Source of the DNA: an uncultured Arcobacteraceae bacterium
GTDB lineage: Bacteria; Campylobacterota; Campylobacteria; Campylobacterales; Arcobacteraceae
NCBI GenBank assembly: GCA_964022095.1
Contig: CAXHZO010000026.1
Coordinates: 1 to 23,826 of the forward strand
Length of the DNA stretch: 23,826 bases
Direction: 5' to 3'
Shown: in pieces, positions 4,409 through 19,403 of the stretch
Numbering within the stretch: position 1 is the first letter of the stretch
Layout: every line of letters starts with the position of its first letter
Notes under the pieces: model-generated
Told to the model about the DNA's origin: nothing
Seen by the model: the letters and a program-made list of their open reading frames with translations, nothing else
Database searches by the model: none
Translations under genes and position numbers: made by a program

Positions 4409-5302
4409 ATGCTAGATCCAGTTTTACCAATAGCTATGTATTTACTTCTTGGGTATTTATTTAAAATAATATACCAAGACAACTCTAAGCAATTAATAGA
4501 GTTTATAATCTATTTTTCTCTTCCAGCAATTGTATTTTCAAAAATCTATCCTTTGGTATTAGATGAAAAAATACTTGGGCTAATCTTAATGTTCATGGGA
4601 TTTATCCTATTTAATCTAATACTTGCGTATTTTGTTGGTAAAGCTATGAAGCTTAACCGATTATTACTTGCTACATTTATGATTATGGCAACATTTGGTA
4701 ATACTTCATTTATTGGGTTTTCATACATTGATGCATTTTATGGACAAGACTATATTGTATATGGTTTGATTTATGATTTATTTGGTTCATTTTTACTTTT
4801 AGTTTCTGTTGGTATGTTCATCATTACATGGGGAAGCGGAAGACAAAACAGTATTAAATCAATTTTTAAATCAATTTTTCTATTTCCACCAACAATTATG
4901 TTTTTTATTACTGTTATTGCAAAAAACTTTGAAGTACCAAATTTCTTGATTCTAACAAGTGATACACTTGGCGCTACACTTGTTCCTATTGCAATGATTG
5001 CAATTGGTATGAAACTAGAATTAAAACACATATTTGTAAAGTTTCATATTGTAACTATGGCAATGGTTTTAAAAATGGTAATTGTTCCAATAATAGTTTT
5101 AATAGGATTCCAGATATTTTACGGTATTGATCAAACTTGGGCAAAAGTAACTATTATAGAAGTTGCAATGCCACCTATGACTATGGCTACAGTTTTAGCA
5201 ATAAAAGGTGGGCTTGACGAGAAAGTGGCTATTAACTCACTTGTGTTAGGTGTTTTATTAAGTCTTATTACTATTACAGCTTATGTTAATTATTTAGCTT
5301 AA
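4409..5302 (+). CDS. AEC (auxin efflux carrier)/membrane transport family permease, substrate unknown
   Basis: 297 aa, about 10 hydrophobic segments; family motifs FSLPAIVF, FGNTSFIG, P(IA)MIAIGM, LKMVIVP, EVAMPP. Confidence 0.85.
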   Translation: MLDPVLPIAMYLLLGYLFKIIYQDNSKQLIEFIIYFSLPAIVFSKIYPLVLDEKILGLILMFMGFILFNLILAYFVGKAMKLNRLLLATFMIMATFGNTSFIGFSYIDAFYGQDYIVYGLIYDLFGSFLLLVSVGMFIITWGSGRQNSIKSIFKSIFLFPPTIMFFITVIAKNFEVPNFLILTSDTLGATLVPIAMIAIGMKLELKHIFVKFHIVTMAMVLKMVIVPIIVLIGFQIFYGIDQTWAKVTIIEVAMPPMTMATVLAIKGGLDEKVAINSLVLGVLLSLITITAYVNYLA

Positions 5303-13275: not shown

Positions 13276-14348
13276 TGAACACATTTGGTCATAGGTTTAG
13301 GTTTACAACTTTTGGAGAGTCTCATGGAAAAGCTCTTGGTTGTATAGTTGATGGAGTGCCAGCAGGAATTAAAATAGATGAAGAATTTATTCAAAATGAG
13401 ATGGATAGAAGAAAACCTGGTAAAAATAAATATGCAACTGCTAGAAAAGAAGGTGATAAAGTAGAAATTCTTTCAGGAGTATTTGAAGGAATTACTACAG
13501 GAACTTCGCTTGCAATGGTAATTTTTAATGAAAATCAAAAGTCAAAAGATTACTCAAATATAAAAGATTTATTTAGACCAGGACATGCAGACTTTACATA
13601 TTTTAATAAATATGGGACTAGAGATTATAGAGGTGGAGGAAGAAGTAGTGCAAGAGAAACAGCAGCAAGAGTTGCAGCTGGTGCTATTGCTAAGCTTATG
13701 TTAAAAGAGCTTGGAATTAAAATTCAAAGTGGTATTTATGAAATTGATGGAATTGAAGCTAAAGAGTTTGATTTTTCAAAGGTAGCTGATTCTGAGATTT
13801 TTGCCCTTGACAGAAATGTAGAACAAGCTCAAAAGGATGCAATACTTGCTGCTAAAAACAAGCACAATAGTGTTGGTGGAGTAGCCTTAATAAATGTATC
13901 AAATGTTCCAATAGGTCTAGGTGAACCACTTTACCATAAACTTGATTCACAAATTGCAAATGCAATGGTTAGTATTAATGCAGTTAAAGCAATTGAAATT
14001 GGTGATGGGATATTAGCTTCTAAAGTTAAAGGCTTAGATAATAATGACCAAATAAGATCCAATGGATTTAAAACTAATCATAGTGGTGGAATGCTTGGTG
14101 GTATTTCTAATGGTGAAGATATAAATGTAAAAGTATATTTTAAAGCAACTCCTTCTATATTTATAAAGCAAGACACAGTAGATATTTATAATCAAGAAGT
14201 GAATTGTGAACTAAAAGGAAGACATGACCCTTGTGTTGCTGTTAGAGGAAGTGTAGTTGCAGAATCTATGATGTCACTTGTTCTTGCAGATATGGTATTA
14301 TTAAATATGTCATCAAAAATTGAAAATGTTAAGAAAGTATATAGCTAA
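13275..14348 (+). CDS. aroC: Chorismate synthase
   Basis: [37 protein letters not shown]. Confidence 0.99.
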
Positions 14349-15096
14349 GCTAATTTTTCTTTTTTTTATTTCTCATAATTTGTTTGCTAACACTACAGAT
14401 TATGAGAAAGCTCACAAACTTATAGACGCCTATCCAAACCATCTTTTAGCATATAAAGATAACTACATAATCTGGAAAAATAAAGAGAAAATCTTATTTG
14501 ATGACTTGAAAGAAAAAAACTCATATAAAGAGCTTTTAAATAATGCTTCATTAAAAAATCAACTTCATATTGAATATATAAAAGTAACTCATAAAGAGCA
14601 CCATAAACCTTTAAAAAATGAAGATCCAGGAAGAGTAAGAAATGAAGAGTTTTTTAGAAAAATGTATGGAGCTACTAAAGATAAAATAAAAAAGAATTTA
14701 GTTCAAATTAAATGGATGCCAAAAACCACTAATAAAACTTTATATGTAACAACCGTAAATAATGTGCATAAAAAACTTCAAAATATTTCAAAAGAACTAG
14801 ATCAATTACCAAAAAAGTTAAAAAAGTTTGTTCATCAGCCAGCTGGCACTTACAAGTATAGAAAAATAGCTGGAACAAATAGATTAAGCATGCATAGTTT
14901 TGGCATGGCAATTGATATAAATATTAAAAAATCACACTATTGGAAATGGGATAAAAACAGAAATAAATTTGAGTATAAAAATTTAATTCCAATGAAAATT
15001 GTAAAAATATTTGAAAAATATGGTTTTATTTGGGGTGGTAGATGGTATCACTATGATACTATGCATTTTGAATATAGACCTGAACTTTTAAATTAA
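14326..15096 (+). CDS. Secreted M15-family Zn metallopeptidase (peptidoglycan L-Ala-D-Glu endopeptidase or D,D-carboxypeptidase-like)
   Basis: Signal-peptide-like [31 protein letters not shown] (SxHxxGxAxD) and [17 protein letters not shown]n-ligand motifs. Start is ATG 14326 or TTG 14320; overlaps the aroC 3' end. Confidence 0.85.
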
Positions 15097-15131
15097 TAGT
15101 TATTTAAACTTTTTTGATTATAATTTCACCC

Positions 15132-15163
15132 AAGCAACTCTTTGGTCAAGGGTTGCTTTTTTT
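15132..15163 (+). terminator. Intrinsic terminator between the convergent M15 peptidase and purE
   Basis: AAGCAACTCTT-TGGTC-AAGGGTTGCTT: 11-bp stem with one G:U pair on the + strand, ending in a T7 run. Confidence 0.8.
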
Positions 15164-15167
15164 ATGG

Positions 15168-15695
15168 CTATTTTTTTGGCATTTGAGCTAGGTAATCTTT
15201 GTATTTAATTTTTTCTAACTTTTCAATTTTTGTATTTACTTCTTCAAGCATCTCTTCTTTATATGCAGATACTTTTTTTCTAACTTTTTTAGACTTTACA
15301 CCTATTATTTGTGCTGCTAGTATTCCTGCATTTTTTGCTCCATTAATAGCAACTGTAGCCACAGGAACACCACCAGGCATTTGCACGATTGATAATAAGG
15401 AATCCATTCCTTCTAAGTTTGAAGCTTTAACTGGAACTCCAATAACAGGAAGTGCACTCATAGATGCAACCATACCTGGTAAATGTGCAGCTCCTCCAGC
15501 ACCTGCAATAATTACTCTTAATCCTCTTTTTTCAGCACCTTTTGCATACTTTACTAATCTATCAGGAGTTCTATGAGCTGATACCACAGTAACTTCATAC
15601 TCTATTCCAAACTTCTCACATATTTGCGCTGCTGCACTCATTACTGGAAGATCTGAATCACTTCCCATAATAATTCCTACTAATGGTTTACTCAT
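15168..15695 (-). CDS. purE: N5-CAIR mutase (class I PurE)
   Basis: [51 protein letters not shown] overlap with the purK stop. Confidence 0.98.
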
Positions 15696-16846
15696 AATTT
15701 TTTGCTCCCTTTTATTTTTAATATACTTTTAGCTTCATTTGCTTTTTCTAAAGCCTTATTTATATCATCATCTAAAACTGTGATATGTCCCATTTTTCTA
15801 AATGGTTTAGTAAAACTTTTTCCATAAAAATGAAATGATAATTCTGGAATTTCTAAAGCATCATGAATTCCATCAATAAATGGTTCACCTTCATATCCTA
15901 TTTCACCTAATAAATTAACCATTACTGCAGGTGAGATTAGCTTTGTAGACCCCAAAGGAAGGTTTGTAACTGCTCTTATTATTTGTTCAAATTGTGATGT
16001 TGCACAAGCTTCTACTGTATAATGTCCTGAGTTATGTGGTCTTGGCGCAATTTCATTTACTAAAACTTCACCTTTTTTATTTAAAAATAATTCAACTCCA
16101 AAAATACCAACACCATTTAAAGCTTCAATTGATTTTATTGAAACTTCAAAACATTTTTCTTCTATTTGTTTTGAAATTCTAGCTGGTGCCATAACACTGT
16201 CACAAATATTTACTCTTTCATCAAATAGCATTTCAACTACTGGATAGCACTTGATCTCACCTTCTATATTTCTTGCAACTATGATTGCTAATTCTTTATC
16301 AATATCAACAAGCTCTTCAATAAATGATTCAGCTTCAATTGCAATTGTATTAGCTTCTTCTTGAGATTTTAGCATTTGAACGCCCTTCCCATCATATCCA
16401 CCAAGCTTCGCTTTTTGTATAACAGGAAAACCAAAAGCAGCTAAATCTTCTGTAGTTTCAATACTTTTATATGCAGGAACAGGAATTCCTTTTTCATCTA
16501 AAAGCTTTTTTTGTTCATATTTATTTTGAATTAATTCCATTACATATGGTGATGGATGAATCTTATGACCATGATCATATAACTCTTTTAAAATTGAAGT
16601 ATCTACATGCTCTAATTCAAATGTTGTAACATCATTTTCTTGAACTAATTGTTCTAATTTATCTTTATCATAAAAACCACCCATGATATGTTTGTCAGAA
16701 ACTTGAGCTGCTGGACAATTAAATGTTGGGTCAAGTATAGTTACATGAAAGCCCATTTTTTTTGCTTTTTGAGACATAATTTTACCAAGTTGTCCACCAC
16801 CAATGATTCCTAATTTTAAATTAGAATAATTAAAATCTTTATCCAT
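15692..16846 (-). CDS. purK: N5-CAIR synthetase (ATP-grasp, bicarbonate-dependent)
   Basis: [27 protein letters not shown] (PurK-type, not PurT-type HDTG), SQFEQ, YGK...RKMGH; coupled to purE. Confidence 0.96.
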
Positions 16847-16872
16847 AAATTTTCTCTTTTTAATTTAATATA

Positions 16873-17163
16873 TTATTGTAGTAACATTACATCTGTAATG
16901 ATACATTTTCCGCCATACTTTTTAATAAAACTTCTTACATCTTCAATCATTGAATATAAAATCTCTTCTTCAAATACTGAAAAGATATAATTATTGCTAG
17001 ATACATCAGTTACATTATCAGCAGTTTTTAAGCCATGCCCACCACAACCTTCAATATCTCTAATGATTGTATATCCAGTAATCTGTTTTTTTGAAAATAA
17101 ATCAAGAAGTCTATTTGTATAAACAGACTCTATTATTATTTCTATTTTTTTCATATTTTTCAT
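16873..17163 (-). CDS. sbtB: PII-like regulator, SbtB-like
   Basis: 96 aa with PII-fold pattern KKIEIIIE...ITGYTII...GxGxxG...YGG; starts 1 nt after the sbtA stop. Confidence 0.8.
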   Translation of the reverse strand: MKNMKKIEIIIESVYTNRLLDLFSKKQITGYTIIRDIEGCGGHGLKTADNVTDVSSNNYIFSVFEEEILYSMIEDVRSFIKKYGGKCIITDVMLLQ

Positions 17164-17164
17164 A

Positions 17165-18145
17165 TTATCCCCACAATTGATTAATTAAAAAGTAGTAAAG
17201 CGGTATTCCAAGGGAAATATTAAATGGAAAAGTAATAGCCAAACTCAATGGCAAATATATCCCTGGATTTGCTTCTGGTACTGATAATCTCATAGCAGCT
17301 GGTACAGCTATATATGAAGCACTACCACTTAACAATGCTAATAAAAATGCATCCCCTTTTGATAATTCAAAGTAGTATCCAAGAGACATTGCAATAATTG
17401 CATTAAATATTGGCATAATAATAGCAAATCCTATTAAAAAAACACCAAGTTTTTTTAACTCATAGATTCTTTTTGCTGCAACTAAACCCATATCTAAAAG
17501 GAAGAATGCTAAGAACCCTTTAAATAAAACTCCGAAAAGTGGCTCCATAGAGTGCCAACCTTTTTCACCTGTTAAAATACCAATTAATAATGCACCCATT
17601 AGTAAAAATACAGATGGGTTTAAAAATGCTTCTTTAAAAATCTCTTTAAAACTTGTAGTACTATTCTCATCATTATTAGATTTTTTATTTATCATTGCAG
17701 CAAATACTAAACCAATAACAATAGCTGGCGATTCCATAAGAGTCATTGCAGCAACCATATAACCACCATACTCAACACCAATAGTTTGAAGATAAGTAAT
17801 ACCTGTTATAAAAGTAACTGCACTAATTGAACCATAGGTTGCAGCTAGTGCAACACTATTGTAGGAGTCTAATTTAGTTCTTAAAATAAAGAAACTATAA
17901 ATTGGAACTAAAATAGCCATAAAAACTGCTAAGCCAAGTGCTTTGAAAACATCTAAACTTAATCCACTTTGTGATAATTCATATCCACCATGTAGTCCAA
18001 TAGCAATTAAAAGGTATAAAGAAAAAAACTTTGGTAATGGTTGAGGAATAGACAAGTCTGATTTTAAAAAGACTGCTAACATTCCTAAGAAGAAGAATAA
18101 AATAGGTGGATTTAAAATATTTTGTAAAATCAAATCAATATTCAT
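17165..18145 (-). CDS. sbtA: Sodium-dependent bicarbonate transport family permease (SbtA-like)
   Basis: About 10 TMs; family motifs PPILFFFLG, KSDLSIP, YLLIAIG, YGSISAVTF, MESPAI, FLLDMG, SASYIAVPAAMR, SLAITFPFNI; followed by a PII-like gene. Confidence 0.9.
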   Translation of the reverse strand: MNIDLILQNILNPPILFFFLGMLAVFLKSDLSIPQPLPKFFSLYLLIAIGLHGGYELSQSGLSLDVFKALGLAVFMAILVPIYSFFILRTKLDSYNSVALAATYGSISAVTFITGITYLQTIGVEYGGYMVAAMTLMESPAIVIGLVFAAMINKKSNNDENSTTSFKEIFKEAFLNPSVFLLMGALLIGILTGEKGWHSMEPLFGVLFKGFLAFFLLDMGLVAAKRIYELKKLGVFLIGFAIIMPIFNAIIAMSLGYYFELSKGDAFLLALLSGSASYIAVPAAMRLSVPEANPGIYLPLSLAITFPFNISLGIPLYYFLINQLWG

Positions 18146-18187
18146 ATTTGTATCTCTTATTTAAAATTTTGAAATCCTATCAAATTG

Positions 18188-18193
18188 ATTATA
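18188..18193 (-). promoter_or_regulatory. Putative -10 box (TATAAT) for sbtA-sbtB-purK-purE
   Basis: Perfect TATAAT 42 nt upstream of the sbtA ATG in the 78-nt htpX-sbtA gap; AAGAG RBS-like sequence near the start. Confidence 0.5.
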
Positions 18194-18223
18194 AAGAGTT
18201 TATTAACTAGGATAATTAGTATC

Positions 18224-19075
18224 CTATTTATTCAACTCACTTTTTAACTCTTCAAGTCTAGCTATTCTATCTTCAGTTGTTGGATGAGTTCTAAATAAGC
18301 CACCTAAACTAGACTTTAAACCAGAAAAAGGATTTATTATAAACATATGTGCTGTTTGTTCTGTTGCATTATTTATTTGATGTCCATTTTTTGCATATCT
18401 ATCAAGTTTTGATAAAGCTGCTTGAAGACCAGAAGGATTTCCCGTCATTCTAGCTGCACCCTCATCTGCCATAAACTCTCTACTTCTGCTTACTGTCATT
18501 TGAATAATTGAAGCTGCAAGAGGTAACAATAAAGCCATGACAATCATTACTATTGGATTTCCATTTTGCCTATTATTTCCAAACATTGCACCAAATTGCA
18601 TCATATTTGCAATCATAGCTATTGCACCTGCAAAAACTGCAGCAATAGTACCTATTAAAATGTCATAATGTTTAATATGAGATAACTCATGAGCAATTAC
18701 ACCTTCAAGCTCATCTTCACTTAACATTTCATATAAGCCCATAGTAACTGCAACTGCAGCATTTTCATGGTTTCTTCCTGTTGCAAATGCATTTGGAGTA
18801 TGATCTGCTATTAAATATACTTTTGGCATTGGCAAACCAGCTTTTTGTGTAAGCTTTTTAGTAATTTTATAAACTGGATGTCTTATATCTTCAATTGGTG
18901 TAGCATTATAATGTTTTAAAACTTGTTTATCTGAGTAGTAATATGCATAAAAATTCATTCCACCTGCAATTAAAAATGCAATTAGCATACCAGTGGTTCC
19001 ACCAAATGAATATCCAATAAAAACAAATAATACTGTTAAGCTTGTTAATAAAAATACAGTTTTTACTTGTTCCAT
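18224..19075 (-). CDS. htpX: Membrane Zn protease HtpX (M48)
   Basis: [16 protein letters not shown] (HExxH), [16 protein letters not shown]. Start moved to ATG 19075, which has an AGGAG RBS at 19081-19085. Confidence 0.96.
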
Positions 19076-19104
19076 TTTTTCTCCTAAAATATTTTGTAAA
19101 TTTA

Positions 19105-19113
19105 ATGATACCA
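19105..19113 (-). promoter_or_regulatory. Putative extended -10 (TGGTATCAT) for htpX
   Basis: TGnTATCAT preceded by a T-tract, 29 nt upstream of the ATG. Confidence 0.55.
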
Positions 19114-19403
19114 AAAATTAATACCTTTGTTAAATAAAAGAGTAAATATAAAGAACTTTTAAAATTAATAATTCAATTATAATAAAGATTTCTAAAATTT
19201 ATAACTTAAAAGTATCTATATTATAGGTATAATTTTAAATTTATAATTTAATTGTTGTAAAAAATAATATATATGTGTTATTTTTAAAATATTTCTTGTA
19301 TTTCTTACAATGAACTATTGATTATTTACAAATTTTTAATTTTTATTAAAAAAAAAGCTAACTTAATTTAAAATCACTTACTAAATTTATTTAAAGACGG
19401 GTA

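Follow-up and report, generated by a model that had tools for sequence, protein, structure and literature searches.

The four-gene block sbtA-sbtB-purK-purE of an uncultured Arcobacteraceae bacterium is, in our judgement, probably a transferable low-CO2 cassette, consisting of a bicarbonate pump and an adapter for purine synthesis. It lies in a window of 23,826 nucleotides (the whole stretch of DNA analysed here) from a genome designated G000. The native state of this lineage is a purE gene without purK, and the presence of the block at several chromosomal places in a family whose own form of this purine-synthesis step needs plentiful CO2 suggests a transferable means of adapting to water poor in CO2. 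The low-CO2 role already proposed in an initial annotation of the window is supported, as are its gene identities, operon-like packing and conserved linkage; its further proposals (a module dedicated to purine synthesis, release of the cell from high-CO2 dependence, and feedback from purines) are too narrow or lack support. The block and its flanks are arranged as follows:

14320-15096, plus strand: M15 D,D-carboxypeptidase-family gene, the convergent downstream flank
15132-15158, plus strand: hairpin of 11 pairs with a T run, closing the convergent M15 peptidase gene and marking the edge of the block
15168-15695, minus strand: purE, 175 aa, a second, acquired N5-CAIR mutase (TIGR01162; PDB 1o4v, E 1e-74)
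15692-16846, minus strand: purK, 384 aa, N5-CAIR synthase (TIGR01161; PDB 3ax6, E 7e-152)
16873-17163, minus strand: sbtB, 96 aa, PII-like partner with an altered T-loop base and without R-loop (P-II, PF00543, E 9e-13)
17165-18145, minus strand: sbtA, 326 aa, SASYIAVP-motif clade permease, not SbtA1 (PF05982, E 6e-120; PDB 7cye, E 2.6e-28)
18188-18193, minus strand: TATAAT, a candidate -10 hexamer beginning at 18193, 48 nt before the sbtA start
18224-19114, minus strand: htpX, the upstream flank, on the same strand as the block

All four genes lie on the minus strand, HMM searches returned the families originally named for them, and the junctions are as first described: a 1-nt gap between sbtA and sbtB, 26 nt between sbtB and purK, and a 4-nt ATGA overlap between purK and purE. 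The signals in and around the block are also as had been claimed: it contains no terminator-like site (between 13500 and 19500 only the plus-strand hairpin at 15132-15158 qualifies), and the TATAAT upstream of sbtA is single, the other minus-strand copy in 15100-18300 lying past purE, at 15122. A promoter consensus scan, which by itself did no better than chance (33 sites against 36.0 expected), did not list the TATAAT at 18193. The position of the hexamer is conserved, however: 16 of the 19 family loci, which are kin, have TA[TC]AAT 20-75 nt 5' of sbtA, against a shuffle mean of 4.3, and none of 1000 shuffles reached this count. We propose that the block is transcribed from one promoter. Read-through may also occur from htpX, a same-strand gene 78 nt upstream that is separated from the block by a weak, AU-rich hairpin (z -1.45). 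Of the 19 family loci compared, just those of the window and its congener G001 have htpX next to the block. A second allele, on one contig of an independent-looking DNA run, covers purE to sbtA (15227-17993) and differs at 37 positions, of which 32 are synonymous and 5 non-synonymous. Contigs of runs X1 and X3 cover the block and leave htpX uncovered, and no contig joins across the block; neither uncovered parts nor depth are taken as evidence here.

PurK scores 404.8 bits against TIGR01161 (cut-off 318.4) and 159.4 against the PurT model TIGR01142 (cut-off 502.15), which makes it a PurK, and PurE scores 224.1 bits against TIGR01162 (cut-off 149.6), which makes it a class I PurE; as with an ordinary purE-purK pair, both proteins score above curated cut-offs and align over their full length with 1o4v and 3ax6, which we take to be Thermotoga maritima structures. 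The window pair differs from an ordinary one in its order (purK-purE), its place behind a transporter and away from other pur genes, and its coexistence with a second purE. This native copy, overlooked in the initial annotation, whose four genes otherwise stand, lies at G000:C8:28576-29070 without purK and is 52% identical to the cassette copy; both have SAHR and AAHL loops, presumably markers of class I PurE. The cassette purK is the only one found in the genome, a match on contig C6 having a PurT-like start. Organisms lacking PurK rely for AIR carboxylation on CO2 or on the spontaneous formation of N5-CAIR at high inorganic carbon. In PMC10880623 and PMC3261824, purE without purK is tied to dependence on plentiful CO2, and in the former PurK is treated as a low-CO2 adaptation.

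The mechanism that we envisage joins these two halves. With its native PurE and no PurK, the cell would depend on CO2 or on spontaneous N5-CAIR formation for AIR carboxylation. SbtA would import bicarbonate into the general cytoplasmic pool, gated by SbtB, probably by adenylate state, as its family membership suggests. The pump alone would supply bicarbonate-using carboxylases, not AIR carboxylation; PurK and its own PurE would turn that carboxylation into an ATP-driven, bicarbonate-using step, so that both halves would pay off in the same condition, travel together and be transcribed together, presumably with induction at low CO2 and a fitness effect there.

The distribution of the block was followed in 167 family genomes, which are kin and not independent, so that the tallies overstate. 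sbtA occurs in 30 and purK in 40 plus one split copy. The linkage of the two, postulated from the window, is conserved: purK stands directly behind sbtB in 27 of the 30 sbtA genomes (26 by coordinates, and G019) and occurs in 14 of the 137 without sbtA, with 360-381 nt between the HMM matches in the 26 and a fixed 313-340 nt from the end of sbtA to the start of purK in family loci. Native purE alone is found in 124 of the 167 genomes and no purE in two, while among the 41 purK carriers 33 have two purE genes and eight only the purK-linked one; the latter is alone in five of the six genomes of genus g3. We read the block as an addition to native purE, which it replaced in that one genus.

In some genomes purK-purE stands without the pump. 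Of the 14 genomes with purK and no sbtA, two have deletion scars before purK, namely G398 (sbtB codons 73-96) and G500 (sbtA codons 1-29). Where purK alone occupies the moaA-rpsO or nrdD-argF site, the genomes retain a GATATAAT resembling that of sbtA carriers. These cases, the replacement of native purE in genus g3 and a beta-carbonic anhydrase that is near universal in the family all fit a reading in which purK-purE is the selected cargo and sbtAB a co-regulated or hitch-hiking passenger of small or habitat-limited benefit. We consider this unlikely, as sbtA is intact in 30 genomes, six of its eight second-allele differences are synonymous, and the co-occurrence is repeated in a sister family, that of G507 (purK in 18 of 19 sbtA genomes and 10 of 142 others) with a different purK that is unlinked to sbtA, mostly of another type and 41-42% identical, and was acquired separately; hitch-hiking does not explain this.

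Movement of the block is suggested by its surroundings and by phylogeny. Across the 19 family loci, seven distinct neighbourhoods were found, that of the window being htpX and the M15 peptidase gene. In quick LG+G4 trees, the PurK rows of Sulfurimonadaceae and Sulfurovaceae nest among those of Arcobacteraceae, and an AU test (12 rows, namely duplicates, outgroup and other PurK types, having been dropped beforehand) gave p 0.009 against the family as one clade, a group named after seeing the tree; for SbtA, with five loci dropped beforehand, family monophyly was not rejected (AU p 0.054). In these trees, the group nearest to the window's PurK is not the one nearest to its SbtA. We propose that the lineage acquired the block from elsewhere and that the block has moved between genera and families. 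Its GC3 (0.11-0.18, against 0.10-0.19 in housekeeping genes) gave no sign of recent foreign composition; carriage on plasmids was not found, the best of 20 sbtA plasmid records being 58% identical and the best of 88 purK records 49%, with none of the three regions inspected joining the two genes. No donor of purK-purE was found either: the 120 homologues among the matches listed are all at least 86% identical, and the named ones are Campylobacterota.

SbtA matches PF05982 (Sbt_1) over its full length (400.6 bits, cut-off 27; profile 1-307 of 308) and is 59-60% identical to homologues from three cyanobacteria, Acaryochloris, Nostoc and Chlorogloeopsis; members of the family are expected to have some ten membrane helices arranged as two inverted halves, and a crude scan gave nine hydrophobic segments, with two halves aligning to 7cye. 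As in cyanobacterial sbtA-sbtB (Synechocystis Slr1512/Slr1513; PDB 7cye, 7cyf, 7egk), a PF05982 permease is followed directly by a PII-like gene; the window pair differs from these, including SbtA2/SbtB2 of marine Synechococcus (PMC13187645), in being joined to purK-purE in a genome without RuBisCO. Transport by SbtA1 requires S114, Y140, S324 and S327 (PMC8352866). By alignment, the window protein keeps only the two membrane crossover serines (S108 for S114, S277 for S324), has M134 for Y140 and A280 for S327, and also differs at D325; by these residues it falls outside SbtA1, from which it is as distant as SbtA2 proteins are. The latter are about 25% identical to SbtA1; of five from cyanobacteria, three take up bicarbonate when placed in E. 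coli, uptake being reduced by SbtB2 and stimulated by chloride rather than sodium (PMC13187645), so that sodium dependence is not to be assumed for the window SbtA.

It is quite unlikely, in our view, that this clade moves another anion or is no active bicarbonate importer, its link to carboxylation genes having another cause. The substituted residues and D325 would agree with this, as would one Labrenzia SbtA-like protein and two Prochlorococcus SbtA2 proteins that had no function in E. coli, but bicarbonate is transported by SbtA2 proteins that stand just as far from SbtA1, and in two phyla inorganic-carbon genes recur beside sbtA relatives (carbonic anhydrases, SulP, PurK, Sua5, biotin carboxylase and a LysR gene).

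SbtB has the PII fold (PF00543, 48.9 bits, cut-off 25), and in a profile search SbtB structures (E 1e-13 to 2e-11) rank above canonical PII proteins. Its T-loop carries C40, H43, K46 and N57 against K40, R43, R46 and N59 of Synechocystis, that is, one identical, one conservative and two changed positions, with two phosphate-binding residues, K40 and R43, absent. Different again from Synechocystis SbtB, it ends at residue 96, without the CGPxGC redox R-loop, which is found in only some SbtB proteins. The nearest single-sequence PDB match is 5d4n (E 1.4e-7), the carboxysome-associated PII protein CPII, with which it has the G-x-G-x-H-G T-loop base in common and from which it differs in its distant sequence and the lack of a carboxysome context. 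CPII binds bicarbonate and nucleotides, and SbtB proteins bind AMP, ADP, ATP and cAMP (10.1101/762807), the published role of SbtB being adenylate charge sensing. With C, H and K at K40, R43 and R46 and no R-loop, the ligands of Synechocystis SbtB are not transferable to the window protein, and the purine feedback loop first proposed for it lacks support. For a predicted complex of an SbtB trimer with PurK the best score was 0.17, where the mark is 0.32 (controls not folded), which counts neither for nor against an interaction.

A supply dedicated to purines, in which SbtA feeds PurK specifically and SbtB senses purine end products and throttles import, is likewise quite unlikely: in all seven family neighbourhoods sbtAB keeps purK-purE, and no other partner, at a fixed spacing, SbtB proteins bind adenylates and a human bicarbonate transporter is raised for nucleotide synthesis (PMC10912719), but 7 of 24 scorable loci of close sbtA relatives have isocitrate dehydrogenase (IDH) or biotin carboxylase and no purK (one more has neither), the cell has a cytoplasmic carbonic anhydrase and no compartment, SbtB lacks K40 and R43, no Rfam match or riboswitch was found anywhere in the window, and by eye no shared operator was visible upstream. 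A carboxysome-type concentrating mechanism is absent, with no match to RuBisCO (PF00016) in G000, where controls were positive, and with a leaderless beta-carbonic anhydrase in the cytoplasm. That enzyme (PF00484) is present in 162 of the 167 family genomes, including all 30 sbtA carriers, and most relatives live without the block, which argues against the suggestion that the block frees the cell from high CO2. An exchange between SbtA and carbonic anhydrase is ruled out by the same 162 genomes. DabA was found in one of the 167 genomes and not in G000.

The transferable low-CO2 cassette has points against it as well. Only S114 and S324 of the four substrate residues are kept, and the Labrenzia and Prochlorococcus proteins were without function; the carbonic anhydrase of every carrier provides bicarbonate from respiratory CO2 as it is, and would let a pumped pool leak away. 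The halves separate, three of the 30 sbtA genomes lacking purK, and purK-purE outlasts the loss of sbtAB. Family monophyly is compatible with the SbtA tree, the nearest groups of SbtA and PurK differ, and a class-wide sample had sbtA in none of 350 other genomes, 245 of them from two families. The family is a natural experiment, with relatives that have native purE only, purK-purE only, sbtAB only, all four genes, or native purE replaced, so that the tie of purine synthesis to the need for CO2 is directly testable in Arcobacteraceae. The role of SbtA in non-photosynthetic bacteria and the absence of PurK from many Campylobacterota are the questions it addresses; if SbtA transports, a non-cyanobacterial pump and a divergent SbtB would join the few characterised ones.

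Beyond Arcobacteraceae, purK occurs in 10 of 11 sbtA genomes of a second sister family, that of G509 (five adjacent by coordinates), and 4 of 180 others, and outside the phylum it lies within 1.6 kb, at 39-43% identity, in 3 of 80 Bacteroidota-like sbtA loci. Transcription of purK independently of sbtAB, which the initial annotation held would contradict its reading, is in part indicated among relatives, by the 14 genomes with purK alone and by six loci outside the family where, as judged by eye, the sbtB-purK spacer is longer and contains a putative -10-like hexamer of its own.

We found no sbtA-purK operon in the literature searched. In two surveys of rTCA autotrophs (PMC10880623, PMC13147460), inorganic-carbon transporter genes likewise adjoin carbon-fixing enzymes, Table S4 of PMC13147460 listing SBT with IDH, carbonic anhydrase, DAC and OFOR; with transporters beside carboxylases thus already published for autotrophs, the surprise is limited. 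The difference is that the surveys concern autotrophs, whereas the window partner is a biosynthetic step supplementing native purE. purK does not occur in the text and supplement of PMC13147460, nor sbtA-purK co-location in the passages of PMC10880623 covered. Tentatively, the block may be a horizontally spread conversion cassette for heterotrophs, by which a high-CO2 purine pathway is made bicarbonate-driven in one piece, put together at least twice in the phylum with purK genes of different origin. It may then represent the smallest version of a wider, modular low-carbon kit (SbtA with PurK-PurE, Sua5, IDH, biotin carboxylase, SulP or DUF6671) that would decide which of the free-living Campylobacterota are able to grow in alkaline water poor in CO2. 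A search for ATP-citrate lyase had no match in G000 or in any control and so lends no support to heterotrophy. Among the sbtA neighbours, a 216-aa gene beside biotin carboxylase had no Pfam, NCBIfam or Atlas match, and the best NCBIfam match of the LysR gene is CbbR, below the cut-off.

The four co-oriented genes described in the initial annotation are present on the minus strand of the window, and profile searches match all four family identities:

17165-18145, minus strand: sbtA (PF05982, E 6e-120)
16873-17163, minus strand: sbtB (PF00543)
15692-16846, minus strand: purK (passes TIGR01161)
15168-15695, minus strand: purE (passes TIGR01162)

The genes are separated by gaps of 1 nt and 26 nt, followed by a 4-nt overlap, with no terminator inside the block, as claimed (the sole terminator-like site lies on the plus strand, past purE); we infer that they are co-transcribed. 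The TATAAT proposed as their promoter, at 18193, is absent from the picks of a consensus scan, which itself performed at chance level (33 sites vs 36.0 expected), but its position is kept: TA[TC]AAT occurs 20-75 nt 5' of sbtA in 16 of 19 Arcobacteraceae loci (shuffle mean 4.3). Since htpX lies 78 nt upstream of sbtA in the same orientation, a weak hairpin separating the two, the 5' end of the block transcript is a candidate only. One contig of X1, an apparently independent DNA run aligned to the window, covers purE to sbtA; of its 37 differences from the window, 32 are synonymous. The block matches its host in base composition, and no integrase or transposase flanks it among the profile matches of the adjoining window genes. 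The arrangement is real, and the suspicion that no operon of this layout had been characterised agrees with the literature searched (mostly outside subscription papers), which yielded no description of an sbtA-purK operon; new here are the native background without PurK, the extra purE copy, and the block having been acquired more than once.

Among 167 Arcobacteraceae genomes, each at least 85% complete, 30 carry a full sbtA and 40 carry purK, in addition to G019, where a contig end interrupts purK. A genome survey bears out the conservation of the sbtA-purK linkage: purK directly follows sbtB in 27 of the 30 sbtA carriers. The other three have sbtA without purK, and 14 of the remaining 137 genomes have purK without sbtA (one, G006, with another purK type). 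purE was found in 165 of the 167 genomes: 124 have the native copy alone, while purK carriers have either two copies (33) or the purK-linked copy only (eight, of which five, the single-contig G024 included, belong to genus g3, represented by six genomes). These tallies, 124 native only and 33 double, indicate that purE alone is the ancestral state in the family and that the block was added on top. In G000, the genome of the window, the native purE (C8:28576-29070) is 52% identical to the block's, has no purK alongside, and lies between two genes that we take to be peptidase-like and glyQ-like; the window purK is the sole one found. G000 also holds a leaderless beta-carbonic anhydrase, an alpha-type enzyme whose N-terminus includes a hydrophobic stretch, and genes of the SulP family; searches of G000 found neither DabA nor RuBisCO. 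In the accessible portions of PMC3261824 and PMC10880623, purE without purK is read as reliance on plentiful CO2.

Seven different neighbourhoods surround the block in the window and the 18 carriers, out of 26 others, with which it was compared. In the PurK tree, Sulfurimonadaceae and Sulfurovaceae rows nest among those of Arcobacteraceae, and an AU test rejects the latter as a single clade (p 0.009, 37 vs 12 rows, for a group chosen after inspecting the tree); the SbtA tree shows similar nesting, with family monophyly not rejected (AU p 0.054). The nearest groups of the window SbtA and PurK differ, so the block has also recombined. Over their full length, the window PurK and PurE align with PDB 3ax6 and 1o4v, presumably Thermotoga proteins, far better than with E. 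coli-type entries; no donor was identified among the 120 homologues listed.

We consider the block to be probably a pump plus adapter suited to scarce inorganic carbon. Bicarbonate brought in this way would serve all bicarbonate-using enzymes, and PurK-PurE would let the PurK-less purine step also draw on it; bicarbonate transport and a phenotype of the block are thereby predicted. The strongest objections are universal beta-carbonic anhydrase (162 of 167 family genomes, all 30 sbtA carriers included), separable halves and missing SbtA1 residues. As to the halves, sbtB codons 73-96 remain before purK in genome G398, sbtA codons 1-29 in G500, and two shared sites still show the upstream GATATAAT in genomes with purK only; these remnants and the retained GATATAAT show that sbtAB is deletable while purK-purE persists. 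That sbtAB is a passenger is nonetheless unlikely in our estimation, and the two halves co-occur in sister families. The G507 family (locus annotated Sulfurovaceae; sbtA in 19 and purK in 28 of 161 genomes) has purK in 18 of 19 sbtA genomes vs 10 of 142 others, and that of G509 (locus annotated Sulfurimonas) in 10 of 11 vs 4 of 180, with extreme Fisher tests whose significance is overstated, kin being taken as independent. The genes are unlinked in the former, where sbtAB stands alone or with IDH, biotin carboxylase and an AraC regulator, and where, in the three purK regions examined fully, a purK-purE pair of different type (41-42% identical) is inserted after the glyQ-like gene, the native purE lying two genes away. 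In the latter, five pairs are adjacent, one is 7 kb and one 283 kb apart, and three lie on separate contigs. A class-wide sample of 350 genomes, 245 from two families, contained no further sbtA.

The window SbtA retains S114, S322 and S324 of Synechocystis SbtA1 (7cye), but Y140, D325 and S327 are replaced by M134, Y278 and A280; the accessible text of PMC8352866 lists S114, Y140, S324 and S327 as required. Transport of another substrate is accordingly conceivable, though improbable, and in the accessible part of PMC4275256 uptake was not found for a Labrenzia SbtA homologue. The protein groups with a wide clade bearing SASYIAVP, is 59-60% identical to three cyanobacterial homologues, and may be an SbtA2; three of five SbtA2 proteins assayed take up bicarbonate, in a process that chloride stimulates and SbtB2 reduces (PMC13187645, accessible portion).

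Purine-dedicated feedback, as first proposed, is the least probable alternative: in the window SbtB the fold is preserved along with the YT motif and N59, and adenylate gating is plausible, but nothing here points to purine-pool sensing. K40, R43 and R46, linked to phosphate binding in the available parts of PMC9974498 and 10.1101/762807, are C, H and K, the R-loop is absent, and the nearest single match is CPII. Nor is the partnership with purine synthesis exclusive: purK lies behind sbtAB in 16 of 24 scorable Campylobacterota sbtA loci, and seven of the other eight have IDH or biotin carboxylase near sbtA. Some loci hold several partners at once: in G798, sbtA, sbtB, araC, IDH, SulP, DUF6671, bioA, purK and purE fall inside 10 kb. 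The best 80 of 589 metagenome loci, picked by likeness to a Bacteroidota SbtA, include purK in 3, IDH in 8, Sua5 in 12, DUF6671 in 25, beta-carbonic anhydrase in 5 and LysR in 34; the three with purK lend partial support to a recurrence of the sbtA-purK pairing in other phyla. Sua5/TsaC uses bicarbonate (PMC11648230, in part), and SBT with IDH and carbonic anhydrase already appears in Table S4 of PMC13147460. Such varied neighbours (IDH, Sua5, DUF6671, carbonic anhydrase) are what a general low-carbon kit would show, the window carrying a minimal form of it.

Several minor observations concern these loci. TIGR02924-type IDH adjoins sbtA in Campylobacterota and in 8 of the best 80 of 589 Bacteroidota-like loci (L040:4415-5875, L091, L204, L207), and monomeric IDH replaces it elsewhere. 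Two-domain Sua5, a bicarbonate-using t6A enzyme, lies near sbtA at 20 loci (one a duplicate) in two phyla (L214:3382-4455, L108:9539-10540, L046:6995-7957); bioA, pyrC and DUF6671 also recur. In loci annotated Sulfurimonadaceae (L021:2737-9153, L036:2791-9070, L215, L216), sbtA-sbtB-purK-purE comes after a divergent regulator of AraC/GyrI-like type, a subunit of biotin carboxylase and a protein of 216 aa; this protein, without a match in Pfam, NCBIfam or Atlas, is encoded in 9 of 35 sbtA loci, each time behind the carboxylase.

At L109:3760-4254, L114:7257-7751 and L120:3557-4051, where a second purK-purE is inserted two genes away, native PurE carries E or A at the position of G in the MGS motif, and two of the three proteins show further changes following SAHR; at these three loci the changes may represent decay. 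More distant SbtA-SbtB types (38-44% identical) occur in the family of G507 (L107:5288-6652, L110:5058-6322, L112:5393-6644), where one SbtB has an R-loop-like C-terminal extension with two cysteines and G657 holds two SbtA types. In G743, purK is broken in two within an sbtB-purK-purE-biotin carboxylase string (L221:3895-5046). The sole family genome with DabA (G427:C6:65838-68609, L054) is also among the five without a beta-carbonic anhydrase match. In the window, a Mem_trans (PF03547) permease (4409-5302, plus strand) sits between what we take to be birA-like and fmt-like genes. Finally, purK-purE adjoins argF, whose product uses carbamoyl phosphate, itself made from bicarbonate, at two separate sites (L018:9047-9973, L209:4325-6407): after purE in one Arcobacteraceae genus, and before purK in G835.
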